DNA of 64,000 nucleotides from Pelagimonas sp. (GCA_025210345.1 JAOARX010000013.1:143135-207134); one strand, 5' to 3'. Counted from the first letter of the stretch, positions 11,127 to 27,921 are shown. The notes: generated from the letters alone by a model not told the origin. Numbers and translations: made by a program.

Positions 11127-11486
11127 TTATTTGCCCGGCTTGGCCCGTGGTTTCGCCTGCGGTTTGGGCACAACACCAATTTCATCCAGAGCCTTCTCCA
11201 ACCCCGATAGCGGTTCCGGCGTGGTTTCGGCCTTGAGGGCATCAAAACTCTCGCGAAGTGCGTCTTTTTCAGTGCCTTTGCAGTCATTCCATGGCCGCCC
11301 CTGAAGCGCCATGTGCAGGACATAGTAGCCGATGAAATGTGGGCGTGTGCCGTGGGTTAACAGCCGTCGATAGGCTTCGTGAGCCCCGAGGGCGCGCAGG
11401 GTTTCCGCATCGGGCACCCCGGCCTTGATCAGCTCGGATTCAATCGCCGGACCAAGATTGCGGATCGTGGAAATGGCTGTGCCCAC
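11127..11486 (-). CDS. TfoX/Sxy C-terminal-domain protein
   Basis: 119 aa. GTG start. Matches the TfoX_C fold pattern (NLGPAIESEL...GYYVLHMALQGRPW). Confidence 0.55.
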   Translation of the reverse strand: MGTAISTIRNLGPAIESELIKAGVPDAETLRALGAHEAYRRLLTHGTRPHFIGYYVLHMALQGRPWNDCKGTEKDALRESFDALKAETTPEPLSGLEKALDEIGVVPKPQAKPRAKPGK

Positions 11487-12692: not shown

Positions 12693-12965
12693 TTAAGATC
12701 CTTTCCCCGCCAGTGTTGCCTTAGGAAAGAGCGCGGGGCAAGGGGGATTGAAAGGTTTTTCTGACTTGGGGTGCTTTGTCTGGTTCAAAGGTATTCGTAA
12801 ATAAAGTCAAAGGGTTGAGGTCGGTGGTGGATTTGACGGGCCAGAGGTCTTGGCCTATTCTTCCCCCATGCTGGACGAGGTGCGCAGCTTGGCCACAGAG
12901 GTTTGTGGTCAATGTGCGTGCTGGCCCAAGGAGGGGTGACCTTACAGGCAAGAAAGGTGTCGAGC

Positions 12966-13328
12966 ATGAGTAATGTAGAAAAAGAACAGGTGTTGATTAC
13001 GGCACAATGCGAAGCAGACCGTCTGACAGAGCAACGAGAAGAGATTGCGCAGACATTGGCGGAACTGGTGGCAGATATCCGCACCATCCAGAAGGATTTG
13101 AGACAAGGGGAAGTCGATCGCAAAAGCGAGACCGGCAAGTTGCTGGGAGAGCTGAGGTATTGGCTGCGTGCAGCCCGTGAAACGGAGGCTGAACTTGAAA
13201 TTATCAGACGAAAAGAGGCAGGGATTGGTGACGCCTACGGGATCGATCTCAGAGCCGCAGAGCTTGCGGTCAGGTGCCGCCTGGATAGCCTCCGCGCCTG
13301 CTGCGACACAGGAAGAATTCCTGAATGA
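12966..13328 (+). CDS. GTA g1-like small protein (putative small terminase/DNA-packaging factor)
   Basis: About 120 aa beginning MSNVEKEQ. First gene of the head-tail cluster directly upstream of the large terminase. The six-frame ORF begins earlier at 12903. Confidence 0.55.
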   Translation: MSNVEKEQVLITAQCEADRLTEQREEIAQTLAELVADIRTIQKDLRQGEVDRKSETGKLLGELRYWLRAARETEAELEIIRRKEAGIGDAYGIDLRAAELAVRCRLDSLRACCDTGRIPE

Positions 13329-13347
13329 CCTTGATGAGGGAGCGCTG

Positions 13348-14604
13348 ATGGCGCTCCCCTATTTGTTCGATTTCTGGGCGCATGAGCATCAGATCGCCCC
13401 CGGGGGGGACTGGCGTTCCTGGGTGATCCTGGGGGGGCGTGGCGCAGGCAAAACCCGCGCGGGCGCCGAATGGGTGCGCCAGATGGTCGAAGGTCCCAAG
13501 CCTCTGGATGCGGGGCGGTGCAAACGGATGGCGCTGATTGGGGAAACGTTTGATCAGGCGCGCGAGGTGATGATCTTTGGGGACAGCGGGATTTTGGCCT
13601 GTTCCCCCAAGGACCGCAGTCCCAGCTGGGTATCGACACGGCGCTGTCTGGTTTGGCCCAACGGGGCCGAAGCGATGGTGTTCTCGGCCCATGATCCCGA
13701 AGCCCTGCGCGGGCCGCAGTTTGATGGCGCTTGGGTGGATGAACTGGCCAAGTGGAAGCGCGCGCAGGACGCTTGGGATATGCTTCAATTTGGACTGCGC
13801 CTGGGGGATAGCCCGCGCGTCTGTGTGACCACGACACCGCGCAATGTTGCTGTGCTGAAAGATTTGCTTGATGCGCCTTCGACCGTGCTGACCCGTGCCC
13901 CCACCGAGGCGAACCGGGCACATCTGGCCAAGTCGTTTCTGGATGAGGTGCGCGCACGCTATGCCAATTCGGCACTTGGACAGCAAGAGCTGGACGGGAT
14001 CTTGCTGGATGAGGTCGACGGTTCGTTGTGGTCGCGTGAGATGCTGGATGGGGTGCGTTCAGGTCGGGTGCCGGAGCTTTCGCGGATCGTCGTGGCCGTA
14101 GATCCGCCCGCGGGGGAAGGAAAGGCATCGGATGAATGTGGCATTGTCGTCGCAGGCGCCGTGCTTGACGGGGCGCCTTCGGATTGGCGGGCCTTTGTGC
14201 TGGAGGACGCCACCGTTCAGGGGCTTTCGCCGCTTGGGTGGGCCAATGCCGTCGATGCGGCGGTGCAGCGATGGGGTGCGGACCGGGTCGTGGTCGAAGT
14301 GAACCAGGGGGGCGCGATGGTCGAAAGCGTCTTGCGGCAGGCCAATGCGTTGATGCCGGTGCGCAACGTCCACGCCACACGCGGAAAAATCGCCAGGGCC
14401 GAGCCGGTGTCGGCCCTGTATGAACAGGGGCGCGTAACCCATGGCCAAGGCCTACGCGAGCTCGAAGCACAGATGTGCCTGATGACGCATCGTGGTTTCG
14501 AGGGCGCCGGCAGTCCTGATCGCGTGGACGCATTGGTTTGGGCGCTGACAGATCTGATGCTGGATTGGACCCCCTCCGCCCGACCGGGCGTGCGCAGTTT
14601 ATAG
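13348..14604 (+). CDS. GTA terminase large subunit (g2)
   Basis: MALPYLFDFWAHEHQ...GGRGAGKTRAGAEW Walker A plus C-terminal nuclease region. Typical RcGTA-type terminase N-terminus. Confidence 0.85.
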   Translation: MALPYLFDFWAHEHQIAPGGDWRSWVILGGRGAGKTRAGAEWVRQMVEGPKPLDAGRCKRMALIGETFDQAREVMIFGDSGILACSPKDRSPSWVSTRRCLVWPNGAEAMVFSAHDPEALRGPQFDGAWVDELAKWKRAQDAWDMLQFGLRLGDSPRVCVTTTPRNVAVLKDLLDAPSTVLTRAPTEANRAHLAKSFLDEVRARYANSALGQQELDGILLDEVDGSLWSREMLDGVRSGRVPELSRIVVAVDPPAGEGKASDECGIVVAGAVLDGAPSDWRAFVLEDATVQGLSPLGWANAVDAAVQRWGADRVVVEVNQGGAMVESVLRQANALMPVRNVHATRGKIARAEPVSALYEQGRVTHGQGLRELEAQMCLMTHRGFEGAGSPDRVDALVWALTDLMLDWTPSARPGVRSL

Positions 14605-14629
14605 AGGGGGATCACACGAATGACCAAAA

Positions 14630-14655
14630 GGGTCTGCCAAGTGCAGGCCCTTTTT
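14630..14655 (+). terminator. Terminator-like hairpin with T-run 26 bp after the terminase stop, inside the GTA operon
   Basis: GGGTCTGCCAAGTGCAGGCCC stem-loop followed by TTTTT, then an AT-rich stretch. May act as attenuator or internal terminator. Confidence 0.35.
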
Positions 14656-14829
14656 GTTTGGAACAGCTGTCTGTTTTTAATGTTGTTTGTCAATTGTTTG
14701 GGCGTTGCGGCAACAGCGTGCGCTGCTGTCAACGCTCATAAACCCTGGAAGGTTAGGTTCATTTTCAACGGCGGAATGACCCGCCCCTGACGCGGCGCGA
14801 GCCGCCTGCGAGGAAAAGGAGCGAGACGC

Positions 14830-16032
14830 ATGGTATTGGATTTCTTCCGGCGCGGTGGTGGATCAGACGCAACCCCGACCGGGGCACCCGAGGCTAAGGC
14901 TTCGGCCACGGGTCGCGTGGTGGCGCATATGAGCGCGGGACGCGTGGCCTGGACGCCCCGCGACACGGTTTCGCTGACCAAGCAGGCGTTTTCCGGCAAT
15001 CCGGTTGGATTTCGCGCGGTCAAGCTGATCGCGGAAGCCGCAGCTGCCCTGCCATTGGTCTTGCAGGATGCGGATACGCGCTATGCGGATCATCCGATCC
15101 TCAAGCTGATCACAGCGCCCAACCCGGCGCAGGGCCGCGCTGAATTGTTCGAGGCGCTCTATGGCCAGATCCTGTTGTCTGGCGATGGCTACGTCGAGGC
15201 GGTCGCCGGTGAGGGGGGATTGCCGTTTGAGTTGCACGTTTTGCGCTCGGATCGGATGCGTGTGCTGCCGGGGGCGGATGGCTGGCCCGTGGCTTATGAA
15301 TACGCCGTCGGCAACCGCAAACATCGTTTCAATGTGACCGGGCCGGTTTCGCCCATTTGTCACGTCAAGGCATTCCATCCACTGGATGACCACTACGGCC
15401 TGTCCCCCTTGCAGGCGGCAGCCCAGGCGGTGGATGTACATAATTCGGCCAGCCGCTGGTCGAAGGGGCTATTGGACAATGCCGCCCGACCCTCTGGGGC
15501 GATTGTCTATCAGGGTGCCGAAGGGCACGGCCACCTGAGCCCCGAACAATACGACCGCCTCGTCTCCGAGATGGAGGCCCACCATCAAGGCGCCCGCAAC
15601 GCGGGTCGGCCGATGCTGCTGGAAGGCGGTCTGGATTGGAAACCGATGGGGTTTTCCCCCAGCGATATGGAGTTCCAAAAAACCAAAGAGGCCGCCGCGC
15701 GCGAAATTGCCGTTGCCTTTGGCGTGCCGCCGATGCTGTTGGGCATCCCCGGCGAGGCGACCTATTCCAACTACGCCGAAGCGCACCGGGCGTTTTATCG
15801 CCAGACGGTGCTGCCGCTGGCGTCGAAAGTGTCCACCAGTGTCGGGCGATGGCTGTCGCAGTTTGTCGGGGAACAGGTCGCTTTGAAACCCGATCTGGAT
15901 CAGGTTCCCGCGCTTGCGACGGAACGCGATGCACAGTGGAACCGCGTGGCAGGGGCCGATTTCCTGACCCAGGCGGAAAAGCGTCAGATGCTGGGCCTGC
16001 CGGCTTTGCCAGAGGATTCGTTGGATGAGTGA
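14830..16032 (+). CDS. GTA portal protein (g3), HK97-family portal
   Basis: 400 aa, AAGGAG RBS. Portal-like central region (LLSGDGYVEAV..., NSASRWSKGLLDNAARPSGA...). Confidence 0.9.
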   Translation: MVLDFFRRGGGSDATPTGAPEAKASATGRVVAHMSAGRVAWTPRDTVSLTKQAFSGNPVGFRAVKLIAEAAAALPLVLQDADTRYADHPILKLITAPNPAQGRAELFEALYGQILLSGDGYVEAVAGEGGLPFELHVLRSDRMRVLPGADGWPVAYEYAVGNRKHRFNVTGPVSPICHVKAFHPLDDHYGLSPLQAAAQAVDVHNSASRWSKGLLDNAARPSGAIVYQGAEGHGHLSPEQYDRLVSEMEAHHQGARNAGRPMLLEGGLDWKPMGFSPSDMEFQKTKEAAAREIAVAFGVPPMLLGIPGEATYSNYAEAHRAFYRQTVLPLASKVSTSVGRWLSQFVGEQVALKPDLDQVPALATERDAQWNRVAGADFLTQAEKRQMLGLPALPEDSLDE

Positions 16033-16252
16033 GATGCGCCATAAGGCCGAAGCCTTCGCCTGCGCGCCCGCGCTGCGCCTTGAGGCCCATGAGCGGGTAA
16101 GCAAGCTGCATTACGACCAGTTCAACGAAAAGCTGGTGCGCATGGAGATGCTGATGGAACGCTTGGAAAAACGTTTGTGGTTAACCGTTTACGGAGTGGC
16201 GGGCGTCATTCTTGCCGAAGCATTTCAAAGCCTGATGAAAGCCGCGCCCTAA
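16025..16252 (+). CDS. GTA g3.5-like small protein
   Basis: 75-aa ORF overlapping the portal stop. Positional equivalent of RcGTA g3.5 between portal and protease. Confidence 0.55.
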   Translation: MSEMRHKAEAFACAPALRLEAHERVSKLHYDQFNEKLVRMEMLMERLEKRLWLTVYGVAGVILAEAFQSLMKAAP

Positions 16253-16274
16253 GCGCGTGAAGAAAGGACGAAAC

Positions 16275-16817
16275 ATGGATCTGGAACATAAATTCTGCCG
16301 TTTCGATGCCGAGGTCACTGTGGCCGAAGGGTCAAAGATCGAAGGTTACGCCAGCCTGTTCGGCGCCTGTGATCAGGGTGGCGACGTGGTGGCCAAAGGG
16401 GCCTATGCCCGTTCGCTGAAATCACTGAATGCGGATGGTCGCGCGGTTAAAATGCTGTGGCAGCACGATCCGGCCCAACCGATCGGGATCTGGGACGAGG
16501 TGTGCGAAGACGCAAAGGGCCTGTATGTGAAAGGCCGCTTGCTGGACAGCGTGGAAAAGGGCCGAGAAGCCGCCGCACTGATCGAAGCGGGCGCGATTGA
16601 CGGATTGTCGATCGGCTATCGCACGGTGAAAGCCGCAAAGAATGACAAGGGCCAGCGGCTCTTGAAGGAACTGGAGCTTTGGGAAGTGTCCTTGGTGACT
16701 TTCCCGATGCTTCCCAGTGCGCGTGTCGCCGCCAAGGGGGAGAGCCCCGAGGAAGACGGCATGCGTGAATTGGCGGAGGCCCTTGAGGGCATGCGCCGTA
16801 ACCTGGCGGGCGGCTGA
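16275..16817 (+). CDS. GTA prohead protease (g4), HK97 family
   Basis: MDLEHKFCRFDAEV...KMLWQHD. AAGGAC RBS before the ATG at 16275. The six-frame ORF begins at 16257. Confidence 0.85.
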   Translation: MDLEHKFCRFDAEVTVAEGSKIEGYASLFGACDQGGDVVAKGAYARSLKSLNADGRAVKMLWQHDPAQPIGIWDEVCEDAKGLYVKGRLLDSVEKGREAAALIEAGAIDGLSIGYRTVKAAKNDKGQRLLKELELWEVSLVTFPMLPSARVAAKGESPEEDGMRELAEALEGMRRNLAGG

Positions 16818-16838
16818 CGCGCGCCACTCATAGGGGAA

Positions 16839-18023
16839 ATGTCCATGAGCACAACCGAGACCACGTCTCGGACCGGGGAAGATATGCCTCCGGTCGCCCG
16901 GGTGAGTGCCGCAATGGCGGGACTGATCGGGGACTTCAAGGCCTTGCAGGCCGACCTTCAACAGAAGCTGAACAAACAGGAAGAGCGACTGACTATGCTT
17001 GATCACAAATCTGCCCTCGCGGTGCGCCCCGCACTGTCGACCCACGCCGAGGTCGATGCACCGCACCAAAAGGCGTTTGATGCCTATTTGCGTTCCGGCG
17101 ACGATGATGCGCTGCGCGGTCTGGAAATCGAAGGCAAGGGTATGACCACTGCCGTGAATTCGGATGGTGGCTATCTGGTGGATCCGCAGACCTCGGACAG
17201 CATCCGCGGCCGTCTGGAAGCCAGCGCGTCCGTCCGTGCGATTTCGAATGTCGTCAATGTCGAGGCACAGGCCTTTGATGTCCTGATCGACCAGAACGAT
17301 ACCGTCGCGGGTTGGGCGGCGGAAACCGCTTCGGCGGCAGAGACCGGCACGGCCTCGATCGACCGTATCTCGATCCCGCTTTACGAGCTGAACGCAATGC
17401 CCAAAGTGTCTCAGCGCCTGCTGGACGACAGCGCGTTTGATATCGAAACCTGGCTGGCGACCCGTATCGCTGACAAGTTCATCCGCGCAGAGGCAGCGGC
17501 CTTTGTGAACGGTGACGGTGTCGACAAGCCCCGTGGCTTCCTGAACCACACCCAAGTGGCGGATGACAGCTGGTCCTGGGGCAATCTGGGCTATGTGACC
17601 ACCGGTGTTGCCGATGACATCGACAACGGCGACTCGCTGATCGACCTGGTCTATACCCTGGGTGCGCAGTACCGCGCCAATGGCACCTTTGTGATGAACT
17701 CGAAAACGGCGGGCGCATTGCGCAAGTTGAAGGATGCGGATGGTCGTCACCTGTGGGCCGATGGTTTCTCGGCAACTGAACCCGCGCGCCTGCTGGGCTA
17801 TCCTGTTCTGACCGCAGAAGACATGCCCGACATTGATGCGGATGCGACCCCGATCGCCTTTGGTGATTTCTCGAACGGGTACACCATCGCCGAGCGTCCG
17901 GACATCCGTGTTCTGCGCGACCCCTTCAGCGCCAAACCCCACGTTCTGTTCTATGCGTCCAAACGCGTGGGCGGTGACGTGAGCGATTTTGCGGCCATCA
18001 AGCTGCTGCGCTGCGCGGTCTAA
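16839..18023 (+). CDS. GTA major capsid protein (g5), HK97 fold
   Basis: 394 aa. N-terminal scaffold-like delta domain with a coiled coil, then an HK97-type capsid body. Confidence 0.9.
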   Translation: MSMSTTETTSRTGEDMPPVARVSAAMAGLIGDFKALQADLQQKLNKQEERLTMLDHKSALAVRPALSTHAEVDAPHQKAFDAYLRSGDDDALRGLEIEGKGMTTAVNSDGGYLVDPQTSDSIRGRLEASASVRAISNVVNVEAQAFDVLIDQNDTVAGWAAETASAAETGTASIDRISIPLYELNAMPKVSQRLLDDSAFDIETWLATRIADKFIRAEAAAFVNGDGVDKPRGFLNHTQVADDSWSWGNLGYVTTGVADDIDNGDSLIDLVYTLGAQYRANGTFVMNSKTAGALRKLKDADGRHLWADGFSATEPARLLGYPVLTAEDMPDIDADATPIAFGDFSNGYTIAERPDIRVLRDPFSAKPHVLFYASKRVGGDVSDFAAIKLLRCAV

Positions 18024-18175
18024 ACGCTGCCAGAGATGAAGGGTGGGGGCATCTCCACTCTTCCCAGGGCGCGCGCAGGCTCGTTGTCCAGCTGTCCCCT
18101 CCGCCAAAGGCAGCGTAGGCGGCGCGCGTCCGCCAGATCGCTGGGGATGTTGGTTCAGGATTTCGGAGAAGAAAC

Positions 18176-18769
18176 ATGATGTTGGTGGAAGAAACACAGG
18201 TGCCCGAGGCGGCCCTTCCGGTGGCGGAGCTGAAACAGCATCTGCGTTTGGGGAGCGGGTTTGCAGAAGATGACGTGCAGGATCCGGTTCTGAAGTCTTT
18301 TCTGCGCGCAGCATATGCCGCAATCGAGGCGCGCACCGGCAAAGCGCTGATCCAACGCAGCTTTGTCGCAACTCTGGACGGGTGGCGCGAGATCACCGGT
18401 CAGGTGCTGCCGGTCTCTCCGGTGCAATCGATCACGGATATTTCGATTGTGGATCAATTGGGTATCGGTGCAGAGCTGGCAAGTTCGAGCTATCGGTTGA
18501 AACAGGACATGTTCCAGCCCGAGGTCAAGCCGATCGGTGGTTGCCTTCCTGGTGTTCCAAGTGGCGGCAGCGTCGAGATCCGTTTCCAGGCGGGCTATGG
18601 CCCGGCGTTTGATGACATCCCGGCAGATCTGCGCCAGGCGGTGCTGTTGCTGGCGTCGCACTACTATGAATACCGCGATGAAACCGCGTTGGGTCAGGGC
18701 TGTATGCCCTTTGGCGTGACCAGCCTGATCGCGCGTTATCGTCCCGTCCGCCTGGGGCTGGGCGCATGA
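18176..18769 (+). CDS. GTA head-tail adaptor (g6), gp6-like
   Basis: 197 aa in the conserved position after the capsid gene. RBS GGAGAAG. Confidence 0.75.
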   Translation: MMLVEETQVPEAALPVAELKQHLRLGSGFAEDDVQDPVLKSFLRAAYAAIEARTGKALIQRSFVATLDGWREITGQVLPVSPVQSITDISIVDQLGIGAELASSSYRLKQDMFQPEVKPIGGCLPGVPSGGSVEIRFQAGYGPAFDDIPADLRQAVLLLASHYYEYRDETALGQGCMPFGVTSLIARYRPVRLGLGA

Positions 18770-19104
18770 GCGCCCCGCGTTTGAACCGCCCCCTGACCCT
18801 GGAAGCACCGACGCGCTCAGCTGATGGCGCGGGTGGCTATGCCGAGACATGGACCGAACTGGGCGTTTTGTGGGCCGAACTTGATGAGCGGACGGGGCGA
18901 CTGGACAAGGGCGAAGGCGCGACCTTCTCCGACATTGCCTTTCGCATCACGGTGCGCGCCGCCCCGGTCGGGGCTTCGAACCGCCCTGTTGCCGGTCAGC
19001 GTTTTCGCATGAACGCGAGGCTGTTTCGCATCGATGCAGTCAGTGAAACCGGTGCAAACGGGTTCTTCCTGATCTGCTCCTGTCACGAGGAGGTCGCGGT
19101 ATGA
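18766..19104 (+). CDS. GTA head closure/stopper protein (g7)
   Basis: 112 aa. ATGA overlap with g6. Head-tail joining family. Confidence 0.75.
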   Translation: MSAPRLNRPLTLEAPTRSADGAGGYAETWTELGVLWAELDERTGRLDKGEGATFSDIAFRITVRAAPVGASNRPVAGQRFRMNARLFRIDAVSETGANGFFLICSCHEEVAV

Positions 19105-19508
19105 GCTATGCGGTTTCAAGCGCTTTGCAGGCGGCGATCTATGCGCAACTGCAAGCGGATGGTGCGCTTTCCCTATTGGTGGGTGACAGCATCTTTGATG
19201 CACCACCTGTCGGCACCTTGCCCCCATTGTACGTGTCGCTGGGCCCCGAGGCGGTCCGCGAGGCCGGAACCGGCGGGTGCGATGGCGCCTGGCACAGTTT
19301 CACAGTTTCGGTCGTGACAGAAAATGCCGGTTTCCAGACCGCAAAAGACGCGGCCGTTGCCGTGAGTGATGCCTTGCATGATGCGGATCTGACGCTGAGC
19401 CGGGGGCATCTTGTCGGGCTGTGGTTTTCCAAGGCCCGGGCCTATCGCGAAACAGACGATTTGCGCCGTGTCGACCTGACATTCCGCGCACGCGTTGAAG
19501 ACGAATAA
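19101..19508 (+). CDS. GTA tail terminator (g8), DUF3168-like
   Basis: 135 aa. ATGA overlap with g7. Confidence 0.7.
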   Translation: MSYAVSSALQAAIYAQLQADGALSLLVGDSIFDAPPVGTLPPLYVSLGPEAVREAGTGGCDGAWHSFTVSVVTENAGFQTAKDAAVAVSDALHDADLTLSRGHLVGLWFSKARAYRETDDLRRVDLTFRARVEDE

Positions 19509-19530
19509 CCTATTCCAAAGGAGTGAGATC

Positions 19531-19953
19531 ATGAGTGCTCAAAAAGGTAAGGATCTGTTGGTCAAGATTGATTTGACCGGGGACGGCCAGTTCGAAACGC
19601 TTGCCGGGCTGCGGGCAACGCGCATCAGTTTCAACGCTGAACAGGTCGATGTGACCACGCTGGACAGCGCGGGTGGTTGGCGAGAGTTGCTGGCAGGTGC
19701 CGGTGTCAAATCGGCCAGCATCAGCGGTTCGGGCGTGTTCAAGGATGCGGGAACCGATGAACGGGCCCGTCAGATCTTCTTTGACGGAGAAACCCCTGAT
19801 TTCCAGGTGATCATCCCCGAGTTCGGCACGGTCGAGGGCCGCTTTCAGGTGGGCAGCATTGAATATGCGGGCACCTATAATGGCGAAGCGACCTATGAGC
19901 TGTCGCTGGCGTCAGCGGGCGAGCTGACCTTTATCGCTGTGCCGGTAGTCTGA
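19531..19953 (+). CDS. GTA major tail (tube) protein (g9), TP901-1 type
   Basis: MSAQKGKDLLVKIDLTGDG... with AAAGGAG RBS. 140 aa. Confidence 0.8.
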   Translation: MSAQKGKDLLVKIDLTGDGQFETLAGLRATRISFNAEQVDVTTLDSAGGWRELLAGAGVKSASISGSGVFKDAGTDERARQIFFDGETPDFQVIIPEFGTVEGRFQVGSIEYAGTYNGEATYELSLASAGELTFIAVPVV

Positions 19954-20285
19954 TGGGCAATCCTTGGCGGGGGGATGTGACGCTGATCATGAATGATGAG
20001 CGCCATGTAATGCGCCTGACCTTGGGCGCATTGGCAGAATTGGAAGCAGGGCTGCAAAGTGGCTCGCTTGTGGATCTGGTTCAGCGTTTCGAGGGGGGAG
20101 CATTTTCCACTCGGGATGTTCTGTCCCTGATCGTCGCGGGTCTTCGCGGCGGCGGCTGGCAAGGGGATGCCCGCGATCTGATGCACGCGGACATCGAAGG
20201 CGGACCAGTCGCCGCAGCCAGGGCCGCAGCGGCGCTGCTGGTCCGCGCCTTCGCGGTGCCCGAGGGCGATCATGGCGACGCGTGA
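19953..20285 (+). CDS. GTA tail assembly chaperone (g10)
   Basis: 110 aa. ATGA overlap with g9. GTA-family protein N-terminus MGNPWRGDVTLIMNDERHVMRLTLGALAELE. Confidence 0.7.
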   Translation: MGNPWRGDVTLIMNDERHVMRLTLGALAELEAGLQSGSLVDLVQRFEGGAFSTRDVLSLIVAGLRGGGWQGDARDLMHADIEGGPVAAARAAAALLVRAFAVPEGDHGDA

Positions 20286-21093
20286 CGGCAATATTGACTG
20301 GCCTGTCCTGATGCGGGCCGGGATGCGCGGGCTGGGCCTTAAACCCTGGGAGTTCTGGGATCTTACACCGGCTGAGCTGCAGATCCTGCTGGGACACTCT
20401 GGGGGGCTATCATCCGCCATCAAGCGCGACCATGTACAAAACGGGACGCGTTTGATCGAAATATGGGAGCCCATTCGCGCCCAGGTTCAACCAGGAGATA
20501 CGGTCCGCCTGCTTGCCGGGTGCGACAAGCGTTTTGAAACCTGTCGGCTGAAATTCCTGAACGGTGCGAATTTTCAGGGCTTTCCGGATCTTCCCGATGA
20601 GGATTGGGTCAGTGTGGCGCCGGGGCTGTCATCGAACTACCTCGGGCGGGAGCCGCAGATGACACCGATTGTCACCTCCGCAAGAGGATGGATAGGCACG
20701 CCCTATCTGCATCAGTGTTCGCGCAAGGGGGCCGGGTGTGATTGCCTTGGGCTATTGCGTGGCGTCTGGCGTGAGGTGATCGGACCAGAGCCCGAGGTGG
20801 TCCCTGCCTACAGTCGGGACTGGTCGGAAACAGGTCCTGATGAGCTGCTCTGGGCGCGGTTATCCGACTATCTGATCCCCAAGCCCATCGACGACACCGA
20901 AACGGGTGATGTGGTGTTGTTTCGCATGCGGTCGGGGGCAGTGGCCAAACATATCGGCATTCAGACCCAAGTGGGGTCTGAGCCTGCCTTCGTGCACGCC
21001 TATTTTCGGCATGGTGTTTGCGAAACTTCGTTCAATCGCGCCTGGGCCCGCCGCACGGTGGCCCGGTTTGCCTTTCCACAGGAGATTTTCTGA
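20272..21093 (+). CDS. Chimeric ORF: g10.1-like N-terminus (~42 aa), then the C-terminal ~50 aa of the DUF2163/BR0599 hub protein (g13), then the complete NlpC/P60 phage cell-wall peptidase (g14); tape measure and distal-tail genes absent
   Basis: Residues 1-42 (MATRDGNIDWPVLMRAGMRGLGLKPWEFWDLTPAELQILLG) look like a g10.1/rcc01693-family protein. Residues ~60-110 (LLAGCDKRFETCRLKFLNGANFQGFPDLPDEDW) are the conserved extreme C-terminus of BR0599/DUF2163. From MTPIVTSARGWIGTPYLHQCSRKGAGCDCLGL onward (internal ATG at 20668) is an NlpC/P60 peptidase with Cys and His catalytic residues. There are no stops between the three parts. Confidence 0.65.
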   Translation: MATRDGNIDWPVLMRAGMRGLGLKPWEFWDLTPAELQILLGHSGGLSSAIKRDHVQNGTRLIEIWEPIRAQVQPGDTVRLLAGCDKRFETCRLKFLNGANFQGFPDLPDEDWVSVAPGLSSNYLGREPQMTPIVTSARGWIGTPYLHQCSRKGAGCDCLGLLRGVWREVIGPEPEVVPAYSRDWSETGPDELLWARLSDYLIPKPIDDTETGDVVLFRMRSGAVAKHIGIQTQVGSEPAFVHAYFRHGVCETSFNRAWARRTVARFAFPQEIF

Positions 21094-22150
21094 TGGCGAC
21101 AATCCTTCTTTCAGCCGCAGGCGCGGCACTTGGCAATACCGTGGGCGGTACAGCGCTGGGCATGTCCATGGGGACAGTTGGCCGTTTCCTGAGGTGTCCC
21201 TGAGTGCGTTTGCGCCCGCGGTGCCGGTGGTGTCGACCTTTATGGATTTGCCTTTGATGACCGGCAGCGAAGACCCGATCGCGCCGCATGTGGCGGTCTC
21301 TTCCGATCCGTGGCCCGGGAGTGTCGCCGTTTATGATGCGGCGCAAGACGACGGGTATGGGCTGAACTCCGTGCTCTATGAGCGGGCCGTCATCGGCGTC
21401 ACCGAGACAGATCTGAGCGCGGCGCAGGTAGGCCTGATGGATCGCGGCGCGCCGCTTGAGGTCAACCTGTCGTCCGGGACCCTTGAGTCGGTCAGCGAAG
21501 AGCAGCTGCTGGCAGGGGCGAACCTGATGGCCATCGGAGATGGGAGCCCCGGAAACTGGGAATTGTTCCAGTTTCAACAGGCCACATTGCTTGACGGCAA
21601 TCGCTGGCAGCTTTCACAGCGGCTGCGCGGTCAGGCCGGGACCGATGGCGCTATGCCTGCGGTTTGGCCGGCCGGGTCCAAGGTGGTGCTGATGAATGGC
21701 GCGCCCCAGCAGATTGATTTGACCTCTGCCAACCGGCGCGTTGCACGCCACTATCGCATCGGACCGGGGGATCGCCCCTACAGTGACCCAACCTATTCGC
21801 ATGCGATACATGCTTTTGATGGGAACGGGTTGCGCCCCTATCGTCCCGCGCATGTCCGCCTGGTGGATGTCGGTGGCGATCTACAAGTCAGCTGGATACG
21901 TCGAACACGCTTGGACGGGGACAGTTGGGAGTTGTATGAAGTCCCCCTGTCCGAAGACAGCGAGAGCTATCTTGTCCGTGTGAAAAATGGGGCGCAGGTG
22001 CTGCGAGAAGAGCAGGTTTCCTCGCCGAACTGGACCTATGTTGCGGCAGATCAGGCCGCCGACGGCTATGGTTTGGGATGCACTGTGGAAGTGGCTCAAA
22101 TCTCGGCGCAATATGGCCCGGGGCTCTTCGCTGAGGCAGAGGTGTTCTGA
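21093..22150 (+). pseudogene. Remnant of GTA host-specificity/tail-fibre protein g15: 36-codon N-terminus, frame break near 21185-21200, then ~315 C-terminal codons in another frame
   Basis: ATGA overlap with the preceding ORF. The Gly-rich N-terminus MATILLSAAGAALGNTVGGTALG is typical of g15 and hits TGA at 21201. A different frame continues to 22150. Full-length homologues are ~1300 aa, so only ~1.06 kb survives here. Confidence 0.6.
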
Positions 22151-22278
22151 GCTTAACCGGGTGTTGAATTCCGGGTGTTAAATTCTAGGTGCGCACGGAT
22201 GAGTTTCCGGGCGCACCCTATTGTGATTTCCTCTCGTGTGACTATTTGCTAAGCTCCATCCAGCCAAGGAGGAAGTCG

Positions 22279-23088
22279 ATGGCACAGGAACGCGCAAAAC
22301 TGGCCCAGATTGACCCGGTTTGGGCCCGCATCAAGGCCGAGGCCGAAGATGCTGTGAAAACAGAACCTCTGTTGGGGGGGATGGTGCACTATTCCATTTT
22401 GCACCACCCTTCGCTTGAGCGGGCGCTGAGCTATCGGATCTCGTTGAAACTTGCGAATGGCGAAATGTCGGAACAGATCCTGCGCGAGATTTGCGACGAA
22501 GCCTATGGTGCCGATCCCGAGCTGGCGGTCGCCGCTCGCGCCGATATTGTGGCCACCCACGACCGTGATCCCGCCTGCCATCGTTTTCTCCAGCCGTTGC
22601 TGTTTTTCAAAGGGTTTCAGGCGGTTCAGGCGCATCGCATTGGACATTGGCTCTGGTTGCAGGGGCGCAAAGACTTGGCGAGCTTTTTTCAAATGCGCTC
22701 ATCCGAGATGTTCGGGATCGATATTCACCCTGCGGCACGTGTCGGGCGCGGCATCATGATTGACCACGCGCATTCCATTGTTATTGGTGAAACTGCGGTT
22801 GTCGGCGACAATGTATCGATGCTGCATTCTGTGACCTTGGGTGGAACCGGCAAAGAGGATGAAGACCGCCACCCCAAGATCGGTGATGGCGTGTTGATTG
22901 GTGCTGGCGCCAAGGTGTTGGGCAACATTCGTGTTGGAAAATGCTCACGCATTGCAGCTGGATCGGTTGTCCTGAAAGAGGTGCCGCCCTGTTCCACGGT
23001 CGCCGGTGTTCCGGCGCGCATCGTTGGGGAAGCTGGCTGTGACCAACCCTCAGTGGAAATGGATCAGTTGCTGGGTTCATCGAAATAG
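22279..23088 (+). CDS. cysE: Serine O-acetyltransferase
   Basis: AGGAGG RBS. Hexapeptide-repeat C-terminus (GIDIHPAARVGRGIMIDHA...GAKVLGNIRVG). Conserved downstream neighbour of Rhodobacterales GTA clusters. Confidence 0.9.
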   Translation: MAQERAKLAQIDPVWARIKAEAEDAVKTEPLLGGMVHYSILHHPSLERALSYRISLKLANGEMSEQILREICDEAYGADPELAVAARADIVATHDRDPACHRFLQPLLFFKGFQAVQAHRIGHWLWLQGRKDLASFFQMRSSEMFGIDIHPAARVGRGIMIDHAHSIVIGETAVVGDNVSMLHSVTLGGTGKEDEDRHPKIGDGVLIGAGAKVLGNIRVGKCSRIAAGSVVLKEVPPCSTVAGVPARIVGEAGCDQPSVEMDQLLGSSK

Positions 23089-23117
23089 CACGGGCGTTCC
23101 GCACCGGTATTGGGGGC

Positions 23118-24866
23118 TCAGGCGGCGCGGGAGCTGTCATCCAAGACAGATTTTTCAGATGTTTCATTAACGGTGAAAACCTCTAGCAAGGCGCTCATGC
23201 GTGAGAGCTTGCTTGTCATGTCGATCGTCGATTGGTTGGCTTTCTCGGTCACCTGCGCATTTGTTTCTGCGTCGCGATCAAGGGCGGAAATTGAACTGTT
23301 GGTTTGGGAAATCAAATCGGATTGCAGATCTGCATCCTGCGCGATTCTGTTGATCTGATCAGAAACCGTGTCGACCTGTGTGACAATTTCACCAAGTCGG
23401 GCCCCCGCGCTGCGCACATGAGTTGCGCCGCTTTGGACACTTTCTTCTGACGCCGCAATCAGTTGGCGGCTCTCTTGGGCGGCAGCTGCGGCGCTGTTTG
23501 CCAGGCCTCTCACTTCCGTTGCGACCACGGCAAACCCTTTGCCAGCCGGTCCCGCGCGCGCGGCTTCCACCCCCGCATTCAAAGCGAGCAGGCTGGTTTG
23601 AAAGGCGATGTCATCGATCAGCTCTAGGACCTGTATGATCTGTGATGAGCGCTCTTCCAATTCATCGATGGCCTCGATGGCCTGCCGCATGGTTGGCAGG
23701 CTCTCGCTTGCATGGGACTTGGCGCTGGCCGCGGCGGTGTCGGCGGCCTTGGTGCGTTGCCCCGTAGACAGCAGCGTATCGGTCATCTTGGTCACAGAGG
23801 CTGAGGTTTGCTGCAGGCGTGCAGATGTCTGTCGGCTGGCTTGTGATATATCGGCAACCACGCGCGCAAGCACTCCAGACGTGTTCTGAATGGTGCGCCC
23901 AAAGCTGTTCAACTCAATAAAGGCGTGTTCGATCTGCTCGACAGCGGCGTTGAAATCGCGGCGCAGCACGTCATATTTTTCCGAAAACGGTCCTTCGATT
24001 CGCGTGGTCAGATCACAGTTCTGCAGTCGGCTCAGCGCGTCGCGCAGCTCAGTGATCGCTTTGTTTTGCGCAAGCTGGTCCTCCTTCGTGACAAGACGCT
24101 CTTGTGCCGCTGTTGTCAGATTTTGTCTGAGCACTTCGAGCCTCGCACAAAATGCCCCGATCTGGTCGCTGCGATGCTGCATCGGGATCGGCGCGTCGTA
24201 GTCTTCTGCCTGCAACCTCTCCAGCGCCGCTTCCAGTTGCTGCACAACACGTCCAAAGCTGCGGCTCAGCAAAAGCGACATCAACGCGATCACGCTGAGA
24301 AAGACCAGGGCCGCAACAGCAAGACCGATCAGTTGTTGCCTGTTGGTCGACGCCAGGGTGGATTGGGCGCTCCAGACAGAGACCAATGCGCCGACGACCT
24401 CGCCCTTTTTGTTTTGGACCGGCAAGATCAGGGTCAAACCCCCCGTTTGTGCGCGCGCCGCGCCGGTTTCAAGCACCTCCGCGATCAGCGCATCATCGGG
24501 TGCCAGGCTCGCTTCGCTGCTTTGTTCGTTGGTGATTTCCACAAGCGTGCGTCCAGAAATGTCCACCACGCGCCCACCGACAAAACTGTCTTCTGATCTC
24601 TGGGCGAACTCTTCGAGACGTTTTTGGATGCTGCCCGAAAACCCCAGTTTGATCGGCTGAGACAGCGATGCGGCGGTGGTTTGTGCCAATTCCCGATGCA
24701 ACCGGTTCAGTTGTTCCAGAACCACGTCGTTGATCTGACGATCAGCGTTCCACGTAAGCGTGCCCGCCACAAGCAGCGTCCCCGCCGCAAAGAGCACCAT
24801 AAGCTTGGATTCGATCCCGTGGATCATACGAAGAACAGCAGTTTGAATTCGGGTTTTGAAAATCAT
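23118..24866 (-). CDS. Methyl-accepting chemotaxis protein
   Basis: 582 aa. N-terminal TM, periplasmic sensor, second TM, HAMP, then MCP signalling domain with the conserved hairpin tip (QTSLLALNAGVEAARAG). Confidence 0.85.
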   Translation of the reverse strand: MIFKTRIQTAVLRMIHGIESKLMVLFAAGTLLVAGTLTWNADRQINDVVLEQLNRLHRELAQTTAASLSQPIKLGFSGSIQKRLEEFAQRSEDSFVGGRVVDISGRTLVEITNEQSSEASLAPDDALIAEVLETGAARAQTGGLTLILPVQNKKGEVVGALVSVWSAQSTLASTNRQQLIGLAVAALVFLSVIALMSLLLSRSFGRVVQQLEAALERLQAEDYDAPIPMQHRSDQIGAFCARLEVLRQNLTTAAQERLVTKEDQLAQNKAITELRDALSRLQNCDLTTRIEGPFSEKYDVLRRDFNAAVEQIEHAFIELNSFGRTIQNTSGVLARVVADISQASRQTSARLQQTSASVTKMTDTLLSTGQRTKAADTAAASAKSHASESLPTMRQAIEAIDELEERSSQIIQVLELIDDIAFQTSLLALNAGVEAARAGPAGKGFAVVATEVRGLANSAAAAAQESRQLIAASEESVQSGATHVRSAGARLGEIVTQVDTVSDQINRIAQDADLQSDLISQTNSSISALDRDAETNAQVTEKANQSTIDMTSKLSRMSALLEVFTVNETSEKSVLDDSSRAA

Positions 24867-24989
24867 GGCGTGGCCTCAATCGACACGTATGCACAATGAG
24901 TCCCCGAAAAAAACTAGCAAAGCCTTTCTCTCTGAGCCTTTGCACAGAAGAAACAAAGACAATTTGCCTAGATCTGTCCCGGATGCGGG

Positions 24990-26255
24990 TTAAATCACCA
25001 AGGCCCCGGGGGCTTCGAGCAAGCGGACCAGATGCGCCAGGAACGCCGCGCCATCCGCGCCATCCAATACACGATGATCCAGTCCCAGTGTTAGCGCCAT
25101 CATCGGGGCGGATCTTACCGAGCCGTCAGATGTGACCATGGGCTTTTGCACGATGGCGCCCACCGCCAGAACAGCACTTTGGGGGGCGGTGATAATGGCA
25201 TCAAAGCTTTCGACCCCATGTGGCCCCAGGTTTGAAAGCGTCAGGCTGCTGCGTTCTGCTTCACTTGAGATCGGTGACCCGGAGTCCACCTGCGCGCGCA
25301 GGGCACGCATCTCTTGCGAAATTTGCGTGATCGGTTTGTGGTCTACGTCTTGCACCACCGGAGACACAACGCTGTCCCGCGTGGCGATGGCGACGCCAAC
25401 ATCACATGTGCCGCGGTCAAGGATATGATCGTCGGCCCAGATGTGGCGGGCCTTGGGCACCTGCTGTAGCGTCAGACCGCAGGCCTTGAGGATGAAATCG
25501 TTGATCGTCAGGTGCTCTCCTCTTTCGGCAAGCACGCTGTTGATCTCAGATCGCAAGGCCACCAGGCGCGTGGCATCAAGGCTGCGATGCAAATAGATAT
25601 GCGGGATCTCGTTGCGCGATGTGCTCATGCGCGTGGCAATGCTGCGTCGCATCGCTGTCAGGGGGATATGCGTGGTGCCCGCCGAAGAAACCGCAGGGGC
25701 CTTCACTGCGGGGGCTGGCACCTGTGAATCAGGGGCGGGCATGGTCGGTGGTATGGGGGTGCTTTGGCCGCGTGTTTCAGTGCCCTCGATCAAATCCGCA
25801 ACCACGATACGCCCGCCGGGCCCCGATCCGGTTATCCCGGTCAGCTCCATTCCGCGTTCCCGGGCAATACGCCGTGCCGCCGGTGAGGCCATAACGCGGT
25901 GCGCGCGTTCTTCTGTGGCCGCGAAGCCCCCCGAGGGAGCCGCCGCCGTGTCGTCGCTGCTGGGCGCGCTTGGTTGCTCACGGCAAGCCAAGACATCGTC
26001 CGCCGTGGTTTCGTCCCCCGTCGCCAGCAGGGCAATGGGCGCGTCCACCTTGATCTGGGCCTCTCCTGCTGCAACCAGGATCTGGGTCACGCGGCCGGCC
26101 ATCGGGGCTTCGAAGTCCAAGGCGGCTTTGTCGGTCTCAATCTCGGCAATGACATCGCCCTGCGCCACCTGCGCGCCTTCCTGTATCAGCCACTTTCTGA
26201 GCCGCCCTTCCTCCATCGTCGGCGAGAGCGCGGGCATACGGATTTCGACCGGCAT
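24990..26255 (-). CDS. pdhC: Pyruvate dehydrogenase E2 (dihydrolipoamide acetyltransferase)
   Basis: Lipoyl domain (IETDKA), E3-binding domain, catalytic domain DHRVLDGA. Confidence 0.9.
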   Translation of the reverse strand: MPVEIRMPALSPTMEEGRLRKWLIQEGAQVAQGDVIAEIETDKAALDFEAPMAGRVTQILVAAGEAQIKVDAPIALLATGDETTADDVLACREQPSAPSSDDTAAAPSGGFAATEERAHRVMASPAARRIARERGMELTGITGSGPGGRIVVADLIEGTETRGQSTPIPPTMPAPDSQVPAPAVKAPAVSSAGTTHIPLTAMRRSIATRMSTSRNEIPHIYLHRSLDATRLVALRSEINSVLAERGEHLTINDFILKACGLTLQQVPKARHIWADDHILDRGTCDVGVAIATRDSVVSPVVQDVDHKPITQISQEMRALRAQVDSGSPISSEAERSSLTLSNLGPHGVESFDAIITAPQSAVLAVGAIVQKPMVTSDGSVRSAPMMALTLGLDHRVLDGADGAAFLAHLVRLLEAPGALVI

Positions 26256-26258
26256 GGC

Positions 26259-26498
26259 TTAGCCCTCGTCCAGCAAGAGCATCTGATCAAACGGGCGTGC
26301 GGGCGGGCGGCCCGTGCGCAGATCCTCAAGGGCTTGCCCGAGCTCCTCCTGGAGCGCCGACGCCCACTCGGTCGCGCGTGCTTCGCTGGCTTCCCCCATT
26401 TCCTGTGTCAAAAGCGCATTCGGCACAAGCGCCACGACCCGCCCCAATCCGATGCGCAGGCCTTCGCTGCTCAGTCCAAGAATCTCGATCTGTGCCAT
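26259..26498 (-). CDS. Small hypothetical protein (~79 aa) inside the pdh operon between pdhB and pdhC
   Basis: ATG at 26498 with GGAGAG RBS. Its stop lies 3 nt from the pdhC start. The six-frame ORF extends to 26564 across a tandem repeat and is probably over-called. No recognisable domain. Confidence 0.4.
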   Translation of the reverse strand: MAQIEILGLSSEGLRIGLGRVVALVPNALLTQEMGEASEARATEWASALQEELGQALEDLRTGRPPARPFDQMLLLDEG

Positions 26499-26508
26499 AT
26501 TCGGCTCT

Positions 26509-26571
26509 CCAAATAGTCGGTCCAATGACCGGGCCAAACAGACCGGGTCAAATAGTCGGTCCAAAGACCGG
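26509..26571. repeat. Tandem direct repeat, two ~24-bp copies (CAAATAGTCGGTCCAA[T/A]GACCGGG) with a 15-bp spacer
   Basis: Fills the 76-bp gap between the pdhB stop and the small ORF start. One mismatch between copies. Confidence 0.6.
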
Positions 26572-26574
26572 GGC

Positions 26575-27921
26575 TTAGGGGGTGTCGCGATAGGTTACTT
26601 GGCGTGCGGCCGCGACCACGTCGTTGGCACTGACCAAGGCCATTTTTTCCAGATTTGCGGCATAGGGCATGGGCACATCCTTGCCCGTCACATTGATCAC
26701 CGGCGCATCCAGCCAGTCAAAGGCCTCTTGCATCAGGACCGCGCTGATGTGGTTGCCGATCGACCCCATGGGGAACCCCTCTTCGATGGTCACGCAGCGA
26801 TGGGTTTTGCGGACCGAAGCGATGATCGTTTCCGTATCAAGGGGGCGCAGGGTGCGCAGGTCGATCACCTCGGCGCTGATGCCCTGTTGCGCCAGCAGGT
26901 CGGCGGCCGCCAGCGTATGATCCATGCCAATGCCAAAACTGACCAAAGTCACATCCGTGCCCGCGCGTACGATTTTGGCCTTGCCAAGCGGGATCGTGAA
27001 ATCGGGCAATGCGGGAACATCCGAGCTGTGCCCATACAGGATTTCATTTTCGAGGAAAATCACCGGGTTCGGATCGCGAATGGCGGATTTCAACAATCCT
27101 TTCGCATCGGCAGCGCTATGGGGCATCACCACTTTGAGGCCCGGAATATGCGCATACCACGCAGCGTAGTCCTGGGAATGCTGTGCTCCGACGCGTGCCG
27201 CTGCGCCATTGGGGCCGCGAAACACAATCGGACAGGACAGGCGCCCACCGGAAATGTAATGTGTCTTGGCTGCGGAATTCACGATCTGATCCATGGCCTG
27301 CATGGCAAAGTTGAACGTCATGAATTCGACCACTGGCTTGAGCCCGGCAAAGGCCGCCCCGACACCGATCCCTGCGAACCCGTGTTCCGTGATCGGCGTG
27401 TCGACCACGCGCTTGCTGCCAAATTCGTCCCACAATCCTTGCGTGATTTTGTAAACACCTTGGTACTCGGCGATTTCCTCACCCATCAAGAAAACATCGC
27501 TGTCTGCGCGCATCTCTTCGGCCAGCGCATCGCGCAGCGCTTCGCGCACGGTTTGGGTCTTGGTACGCGTGCCCTCGGGCCACTCTTGTGGTGCCGCCGG
27601 GGCAGGGGGCGTGGCAGAGGGGGCGGCTTGGGCTGGCGCGGATGCGGGCGAAACCTTGCTGGGGGGCGGCGGCGTTTCACCGGGTTCCAAAAGCAAAGCG
27701 ATCGGGGTGTTGATCTTGATGCCGGCGCTGCCCGCCGGGGTCAGGATCTGCCCCAGGATGCCATCTTCGGGGGCCTCGAACTCAAGGGTGGCCTTGTCGG
27801 TTTCGATCTCGGCGATCACGTCGCCCACACGCAGGTCATCGCCTTCGCGCACCAGCCATTTGGACAGCGTGCCTTCTTCCATCGTCGGGGAAAGGGTCGG
27901 CATAAGCAGGGGTTTGGTCAT
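26575..27921 (-). CDS. pdhB: Pyruvate dehydrogenase E1 beta subunit with N-terminal lipoyl domain
   Basis: 448 aa. [17 protein letters not shown] lipoyl domain, Ala/Pro linker, transketolase-like E1 beta. Confidence 0.9.

Follow-up and report, generated by a model that had tools for sequence, protein, structure and literature searches.

The closest described system to the locus reported here is the gene transfer agent (GTA) of Rhodobacter capsulatus, RcGTA (rcc01682-rcc01698, PMC7296036), in which, as in siphophages generally, the tip complex consists of tape measure, distal tail protein, hub and megatron; the tail tube polymerises on it, and it opens the recipient envelope (PMC7296036, in line with established knowledge). 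RcGTA-like 'large clusters', defined as at least nine homologues of RcGTA head-tail genes in one region, have been reported with pseudogenised genes among them (Shakya et al. 2017, PMC5721377). We analysed a 64,000-nucleotide stretch of Pelagimonas sp. DNA (GCA_025210345.1, JAOARX010000013.1:143135-207134; hereafter the window), which carries an RcGTA-type head-tail cluster on the + strand at 12966-22150, a span of 9185 bp. The order of genes g1 to g10, g14 and g15, followed by cysE, is that of RcGTA and the gene families match, but the window lacks g11 and g12 and has no g16 between g15 and cysE, its hub is reduced to the last ~85 residues, and its megatron is reduced to a 33-codon stub and the fibre-binding domain. 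We consider it very probable that this is an RcGTA-type cluster that was recently hit by two internal deletions, and thus a domesticated virus in early decay. The host is an uncultured marine Pelagimonas-like bacterium of the Roseobacter group, and the cluster is vertically inherited.

The closest relative found, the metagenome-assembled genome (MAG) Pelagimonas sp. McD1.36 (locus L007), has an intact cluster at the same chromosomal site, with an equivalent span of ~14.1 kb and head proteins 80-90% identical to those of the window. Its DNA is colinear with the window from 5' of g1 through cysE except for two gaps, at which it keeps stretches of ~2.0 kb and ~2.9 kb absent from the window. The original prediction had described a cluster of ~9.2 kb, shorter than the canonical length, and the comparison of 9185 bp with ~14.1 kb bears this out. 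As a reference for the breakpoints we used an intact metagenomic cluster, L082, whose proteins are 62-83% identical to those of the window. The first deletion and its products are as follows.

20395..20406, + strand: junction 1, an in-frame deletion of ~2.0 kb, placed by tblastn to the L082 g10.1 and hub and by the DNA colinearity gap against L007
20272..21093, + strand: chimeric open reading frame (ORF) of 273 codons, joining g10.1 (codons 1-~41), the C-terminus of hub g13 (~codons 46-129) and g14; gene calls in three other assemblies give it too
20659..21093, + strand: g14, complete NlpC/P60 cell-wall peptidase (TIGR02219 positions 1-134 of 134; NCBI MCT4557417.1)

Each part of the chimera could be assigned to its parent gene by profile search: residues 9-49 match the rcc01693 (g10.1) family (TIGR02216 positions 3-42 of 58), residues 44-123 the baseplate hub (TIGR02218 positions 186-261 of 266) and residues 133-269 the complete NlpC/P60 peptidase. 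Residues 3-41 of the L082 g10.1 protein and residues 200-436 of its hub align to the window in a single frame, and the 175 bp at window 20393-20568 correspond to 2180 bp in L007 (8012-10192), so that ~2.0 kb is gone. The deletion joins g10.1 codon ~41 to hub codon ~206 and removes the end of g10.1, all of the tape-measure gene g11 and the distal-tail gene g12, and hub codons 1-~205, or two thirds of the hub. What remains of g13 is its last ~85 codons, with only the second pair of cysteines, two of the four conserved at the iron-sulfur (Fe-S) site; by the RcGTA domain map (PMC7296036) the lost parts are the attachment domain, the first half of the Fe-S site and part of the sugar-binding domain. 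The peptidase gene g14 sits between both deletions and has its own GGGAG ribosome-binding site before the ATG at 20659.

At the border between hub and g14, the hub frame of the window reads into g14 without a stop codon (20581-20670). The same arrangement occurs in L082 (4218-5534), whose hub is intact and whose hub-peptidase read-through protein, P0002, has 438 residues, whereas in L007 (10200-10320) the TGA of the hub overlaps the ATG of g14. A natural fusion of hub and peptidase may thus exist in some lineages.

The second deletion lies just downstream of g14, within the megatron gene g15.

21093..21203, + strand: g15 N-terminal stub, 70% identical to residues 1-33 of the L082 g15 protein, called as a 36-residue ORF
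21186..21190, + strand: junction 2, an out-of-frame deletion of ~2.9 kb spanning megatron codons ~34 to ~1000, with homology to L007 resuming at 'PEVSL'
21188..22150, + strand: g15 C-terminal remnant, equivalent to the fibre-binding domain (GTA_megatron profile positions 982-1298 of 1299; Rcc01698_C)

In tblastn searches, the L082 megatron matches frame +3 of the window with its residues 1-33 (21093-21191) and frame +2 with its residues 1004-1314 (21200-22132; 63% identity). The 64 bp at window 21127-21191 correspond to 2963 bp in L007 (10750-13713), which places the loss at ~2.9 kb. The frame shift at the junction is -1, and the megatron stub therefore terminates at the stop codon at 21201-21203, after 33 homologous codons and 3 out-of-frame codons. 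The C-terminal remnant is 317 codons without a stop, and homology gives it no start codon of its own; gene callers pick differing internal starts that give 297-318 residues (NCBI locus tag N4A61_05095). On the RcGTA map (PMC7296036), the adhesin-like, peripheral and central domains of the megatron are lost, and the fibre-binding domain stays. A 'g15 remnant' had been proposed from the sequence; a remnant is indeed present, but as two pieces in different frames, the 33-codon stub and the C-terminal fibre-binding domain, and the g14 in front of it is intact.

A survey of 163 related loci from genomes and metagenomes, of which ~100 with adequate flanks were used to compare spans, set the shortened cluster apart. 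Genes g11, g12 and g13 are full in all of these ~100 relatives, and g15 is full length in every surveyed relative with enough downstream DNA. From the start of g9 to the end of g14, relatives measure 3.0-3.7 kb and the window 1.55 kb; from the end of g14 to the start of cysE, relatives measure at least 4.2 kb and the window 1.2 kb. The whole stretch from g9 to cysE is ~4.9 kb longer than the window's in the ~100 relatives. Scans of genome and metagenome contigs found no second case of the g10.1::hub fusion among the surveyed loci and no further contigs of the same species.

The window comes from a metagenome-assembled genome, and such assemblies can collapse or mis-join sequence; the deletions might then be artefacts of assembly or binning, and the true genome might hold a full 14-kb cluster. 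Against this, a Logan contig of SRR21418663 matches the window at 100% identity over 19722-26686 and spans both junctions. In JGI metagenome 3300045498, a 104,949-bp contig carries the same shortened cluster, with gene calls for the 273-residue chimera, the 36-residue stub and a 309-residue remnant. This contig differs from the window by 4 single-nucleotide polymorphisms (SNPs) in 36 kb, 0 of them within the cluster. A 1438-bp contig from a third metagenome, JGI 3300039008, spans junction 1 at 99.8% identity, and the flanks of both junctions are not repeats of each other. One of these contigs comes from a different strain, as its SNPs show. Because three separately made assemblies have the same structure, an artefact is very unlikely, and we give this explanation almost no weight.

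Most of the gene families in the cluster are common to HK97-like siphophages, and the locus could on that ground be read as the remnant of a conventional HK97-like prophage rather than a GTA. We identified the genes from g2 on by Pfam and NCBIfam profile searches; the head, neck and tube genes and the downstream neighbour are as follows.

12966..13328, + strand: g1, at the small-terminase position, with 62% identity across residues 3-120 to the L007 cluster's first gene
13348..14604, + strand: g2, large terminase (Terminase_6N and Terminase_6C), 80% identical to L007, gene call of 418 residues
14830..16032, + strand: g3, portal (Phage_portal 300 bits, portal_HK97 215 bits; exact protein NCBI MCT4557408.1)
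16025..16252, + strand: g3.5, GTA head formation protein (NF048001, rcc01685 family, 101 bits against a cut-off of 50)
16257..16817, + strand: g4, prohead protease (Peptidase_S78 and proheadase_HK97)
16839..18023, + strand: g5, HK97-type major capsid protein (Phage_capsid 288 bits, major_cap_HK97 360 bits; MCT4557411.1 at 100%)
18176..18769, + strand: g6, head-tail connector/adaptor (TIGR02215, 191 bits)
18766..19104, + strand: g7, head completion (stopper) protein (Phage_HCP)
19101..19508, + strand: g8, tail completion/terminator protein (Tail_completion_gp17)
19531..19953, + strand: g9, tail tube protein (Phage_tail_2, 168 bits), 87% identical to L007
19953..20285, + strand: g10, tail assembly chaperone (Phage_TAC_11, GTA-gp10; PF11836, 99 bits), named 'gene transfer agent family protein' at NCBI
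22279..23088, + strand: cysE, the conserved downstream neighbour and not a particle component (SATase_N and Hexapep, cysE equivalog)

The profile check that had been suggested thus returned terminase, portal, protease and capsid matches for these ORFs, and the predicted RcGTA-type cluster in g1-g15 order is there with every named gene in place. Genes g1 to g10 and g14 are full length, and the + strand run is tightly packed, with adjacent genes overlapping or abutting from g3 to g10; the head module, tube and chaperone had likewise been described as intact with start/stop overlaps. The predicted loss of most of the distal tail and baseplate module holds as well: g11 and g12 are absent and the hub and g15 truncated. 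With g1 to g10 and g14 complete and fragments of g10.1, g13 and g15, the locus falls within the large-cluster definition, although the complete structural set that would include g11, g12, g13 and g15 is broken, the first two being absent and the hub and megatron partial.

Beyond gene order, families specific to GTAs (rcc01685, GTA-gp10, rcc01693 and megatron) match, which speaks against a conventional prophage; for TIGR02216 and NF048004, truncation of the genes keeps the match scores under the cut-offs. Dozens of Rhodobacterales genera have clusters that are colinear with this one, with cysE downstream, and cysE lies 3' of g15 in nearly all surveyed loci. As had been foreseen, cysE directly follows the cluster here, at 22279. 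The site, flanked by an aminotransferase gene and cysE, is the usual chromosomal position of RcGTA, fixed among housekeeping genes. Upstream lie genes for LptD, LptF/G, leucyl aminopeptidase, MarC, ABC-F, NDK, a TfoX_C protein and the aminotransferase. Downstream, cysE is followed by genes for a chemoreceptor, pyruvate dehydrogenase, PGK and cyclophilins, and further on by genes for an aminoacyl-tRNA synthetase, MoaA, GlmS/GlmU, leucine catabolism and nuo. No integrase, repressor, replication or lysis gene, the first and last of which would have pointed to an ordinary prophage, was found within 13 kb upstream or 42 kb downstream, and Rfam and tRNA scans of the window gave no matches. The housekeeping flanks, GTA-specific families and conserved site therefore rule out a conventional prophage, leaving it a negligible probability.

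Two details of the first genes concern their starts. Gene g1 has no Pfam or NCBIfam match, and its JGI gene call is 138 residues long with a start at 12912. The frame of g2 is open from 13168, 60 codons 5' of the called start and overlapping the 3' half of g1, and this upstream extension (13168-13347) also aligns to L007 by tblastn; the start of g2 and the extent of its overlap with g1 are uncertain.

Deletion 1, which fuses the start of g10.1 to the end of the hub, took out g11, g12 and the hub attachment domain, and the frame-shifting deletion 2 took out the adhesin-like, peripheral and central domains of the megatron. With the tip complex gone, no tailed, DNA-delivering particle would be expected, and at most heads and unregulated tube protein would be made. 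Because the lost proteins form the complex for tube assembly and envelope opening, the locus in all likelihood no longer yields a transducing particle, a loss of function that we infer from homology to RcGTA. In RcGTA, a g14 deletion mutant and particles without tape measure show heads without tails or aberrant particles (PMC7296036), the phenotype expected of a tail-tip defect; those laboratory mutants carry single defects, whereas the window has naturally lost four tail-tip components and would be predicted to share the phenotype. A decaying GTA was among the options first proposed for this locus, and it is the better supported one, since two simple deletions, the second of which shifts the frame, hit the genes of the tail initiation complex.

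The deletions also look recent, because the genes that survive are free of stops and frameshifts and do not evolve at a consistently raised rate; compared with L007, all of them are full length. The promoter-like region upstream of the cluster has likewise been kept.

12693..12965, + strand: non-coding stretch ahead of the cluster, with conserved blocks that resemble a promoter (TTGAC.. and CCATGCTGGACGAG), then a ribosome-binding site and the g1 start

An alignment with six relatives places the conserved blocks of this region in the window, and a promoter function is suggested by them. The most likely reason why g14, the upstream control region and the genes for head, neck and tube remain intact is that too little time has passed for decay. 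Tajima relative-rate tests of the window against L007 with five outgroups, in which the sister status of L007 is doubtful for g14 and the g15 C-terminus, gave no consistent sign that the head, neck and tube genes, g14 or the g15 remnant have gathered extra changes in the window.

For g14 and g15, the same tests did not give the pattern expected of the window and L007 as sister lineages. Gene g7 (18766-19104) and the stretch from g14 through the g15 C-terminus (20659-22150) are 60-62% identical to L007, no closer than to other genera, which suggests that the distal tail module may be mosaic or fast-evolving.

Intact surviving genes leave room for a different account, in which the short cluster is still used, either with a tail tip supplied in trans by a second GTA-like tail module or a prophage, or in a tail-independent role such as the release of capsid-protected DNA on lysis. 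That g1 to g10 and g14 are full length and free of stops and frameshifts would fit such use, as would rates not consistently above those of a relative whose cluster is intact and the retention of the conserved upstream blocks, but each intact gene is equally expected soon after a recent deletion. Deletion 1 is in frame and leaves g14 its own ribosome-binding site; deletion 2, in contrast, is out of frame and resembles damage rather than design, and the hub fragment left by deletion 1 lacks half of the Fe-S site and the attachment domain. The same structure recurs in at least three metagenomic data sets, and RcGTA itself is encoded at several loci (PMC5026251). Yet tblastn with L082 queries found no homologue of g11, g12, the hub N-terminus or mid-g15 in the 64 kb, and in RcGTA the loss of g14 alone gives empty heads without tails (PMC7296036). 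On balance we regard continued use as unlikely. A selective version of the idea, that the head, neck and tube module is being held by selection as a tail-less, capsid-only DNA packager released on lysis or as one completed by a tail-tip module encoded elsewhere, strikes us as quite improbable; if true, it would make the locus a natural two-part or minimised GTA. In a minor variant of this idea, occasional -1 slippage at junction 2 (GTTTCC) could yield a mini-megatron made of the iris helix and the fibre-binding domain.

Several points weigh against recent decay and loss of delivery. The loss of function is read from homology to RcGTA; the genome search covered 64 kb, and a second tail module could sit elsewhere; and lesion-free genes with intact upstream blocks are also predicted by selection on a head-plus-tube product. 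Recovery from several metagenomes marks the deletion-bearing lineage as an established one rather than a transient mutant. Strain SNPs in the cluster are too scarce for a ratio of nonsynonymous to synonymous polymorphism (pN/pS), with seven in the 3300039008 contigs and 0 in the 105-kb contig. Among those seven, five are nonsynonymous, one is synonymous and one is ambiguous, being nonsynonymous under the longer g4 call; they could be low-coverage errors or reflect real relaxed constraint. In the flanking housekeeping genes, at least two of the four SNPs that distinguish the 3300045498 contig also change protein. The seven SNPs lie in two contigs of 3300039008 (L164 and L081) compared with window 15582-18352 and 19715-21152, and three of them are A-to-T changes in g4.

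Early decay of an RcGTA-type cluster, our preferred reading, has company. Sporadic decay of RcGTA-like clusters is a recurring event known from the literature (PMC5721377), and damaged clusters, both published (PMC5721377) and in our survey (L156, L066 and L036), are likewise RcGTA-like, with at least nine homologues and some genes broken or missing. Their lesions are all different, and the window stands apart in having an untouched head module and two tail-tip deletions that flank g14. In L156 (8016-9404), terminase residue ~385 is joined to g12 residue ~94, so that g3 to g11 are lost and g13, g14, g15 and cysE are kept. A Roseovarius MAG (L066, 9677-18566) has no upstream head module, a hub that begins at residue 97, and a ~3.9 kb insertion with frame changes in g15, and in a Cypionkella MAG (L036, 6765-7868) g12 is interrupted by an insertion of ~0.5 kb and g9 to g11 are absent upstream.

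Reports of degraded GTA clusters already exist, and this is an ordinary case of known GTA cluster decay, with no new mechanism, element type or kind of particle. Its value lies in being a clean and datable natural example of the onset of GTA loss, in which the complex for tail initiation and DNA delivery is deleted and the other genes are pristine. A free-living roseobacter lineage appears to tolerate the loss of GTA function, which has a modest bearing on whether selection maintains GTAs, and the locus offers a natural 'tail-less' genotype usable in experiments.

Two features at the edges of the cluster may be added. Two genes 5' of g1 and adjoining the aminotransferase gene, the - strand at 11127-11486 encodes a 119-residue protein with a TfoX_C domain, a domain family of competence regulators. 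In the gap between g15 and cysE (22151-22278), the window is without g16 (rcc01699/DUF7742-like), as is L007, and the corresponding gap of L082 holds a DUF7742 gene together with a DksA/TraR zinc-finger gene.

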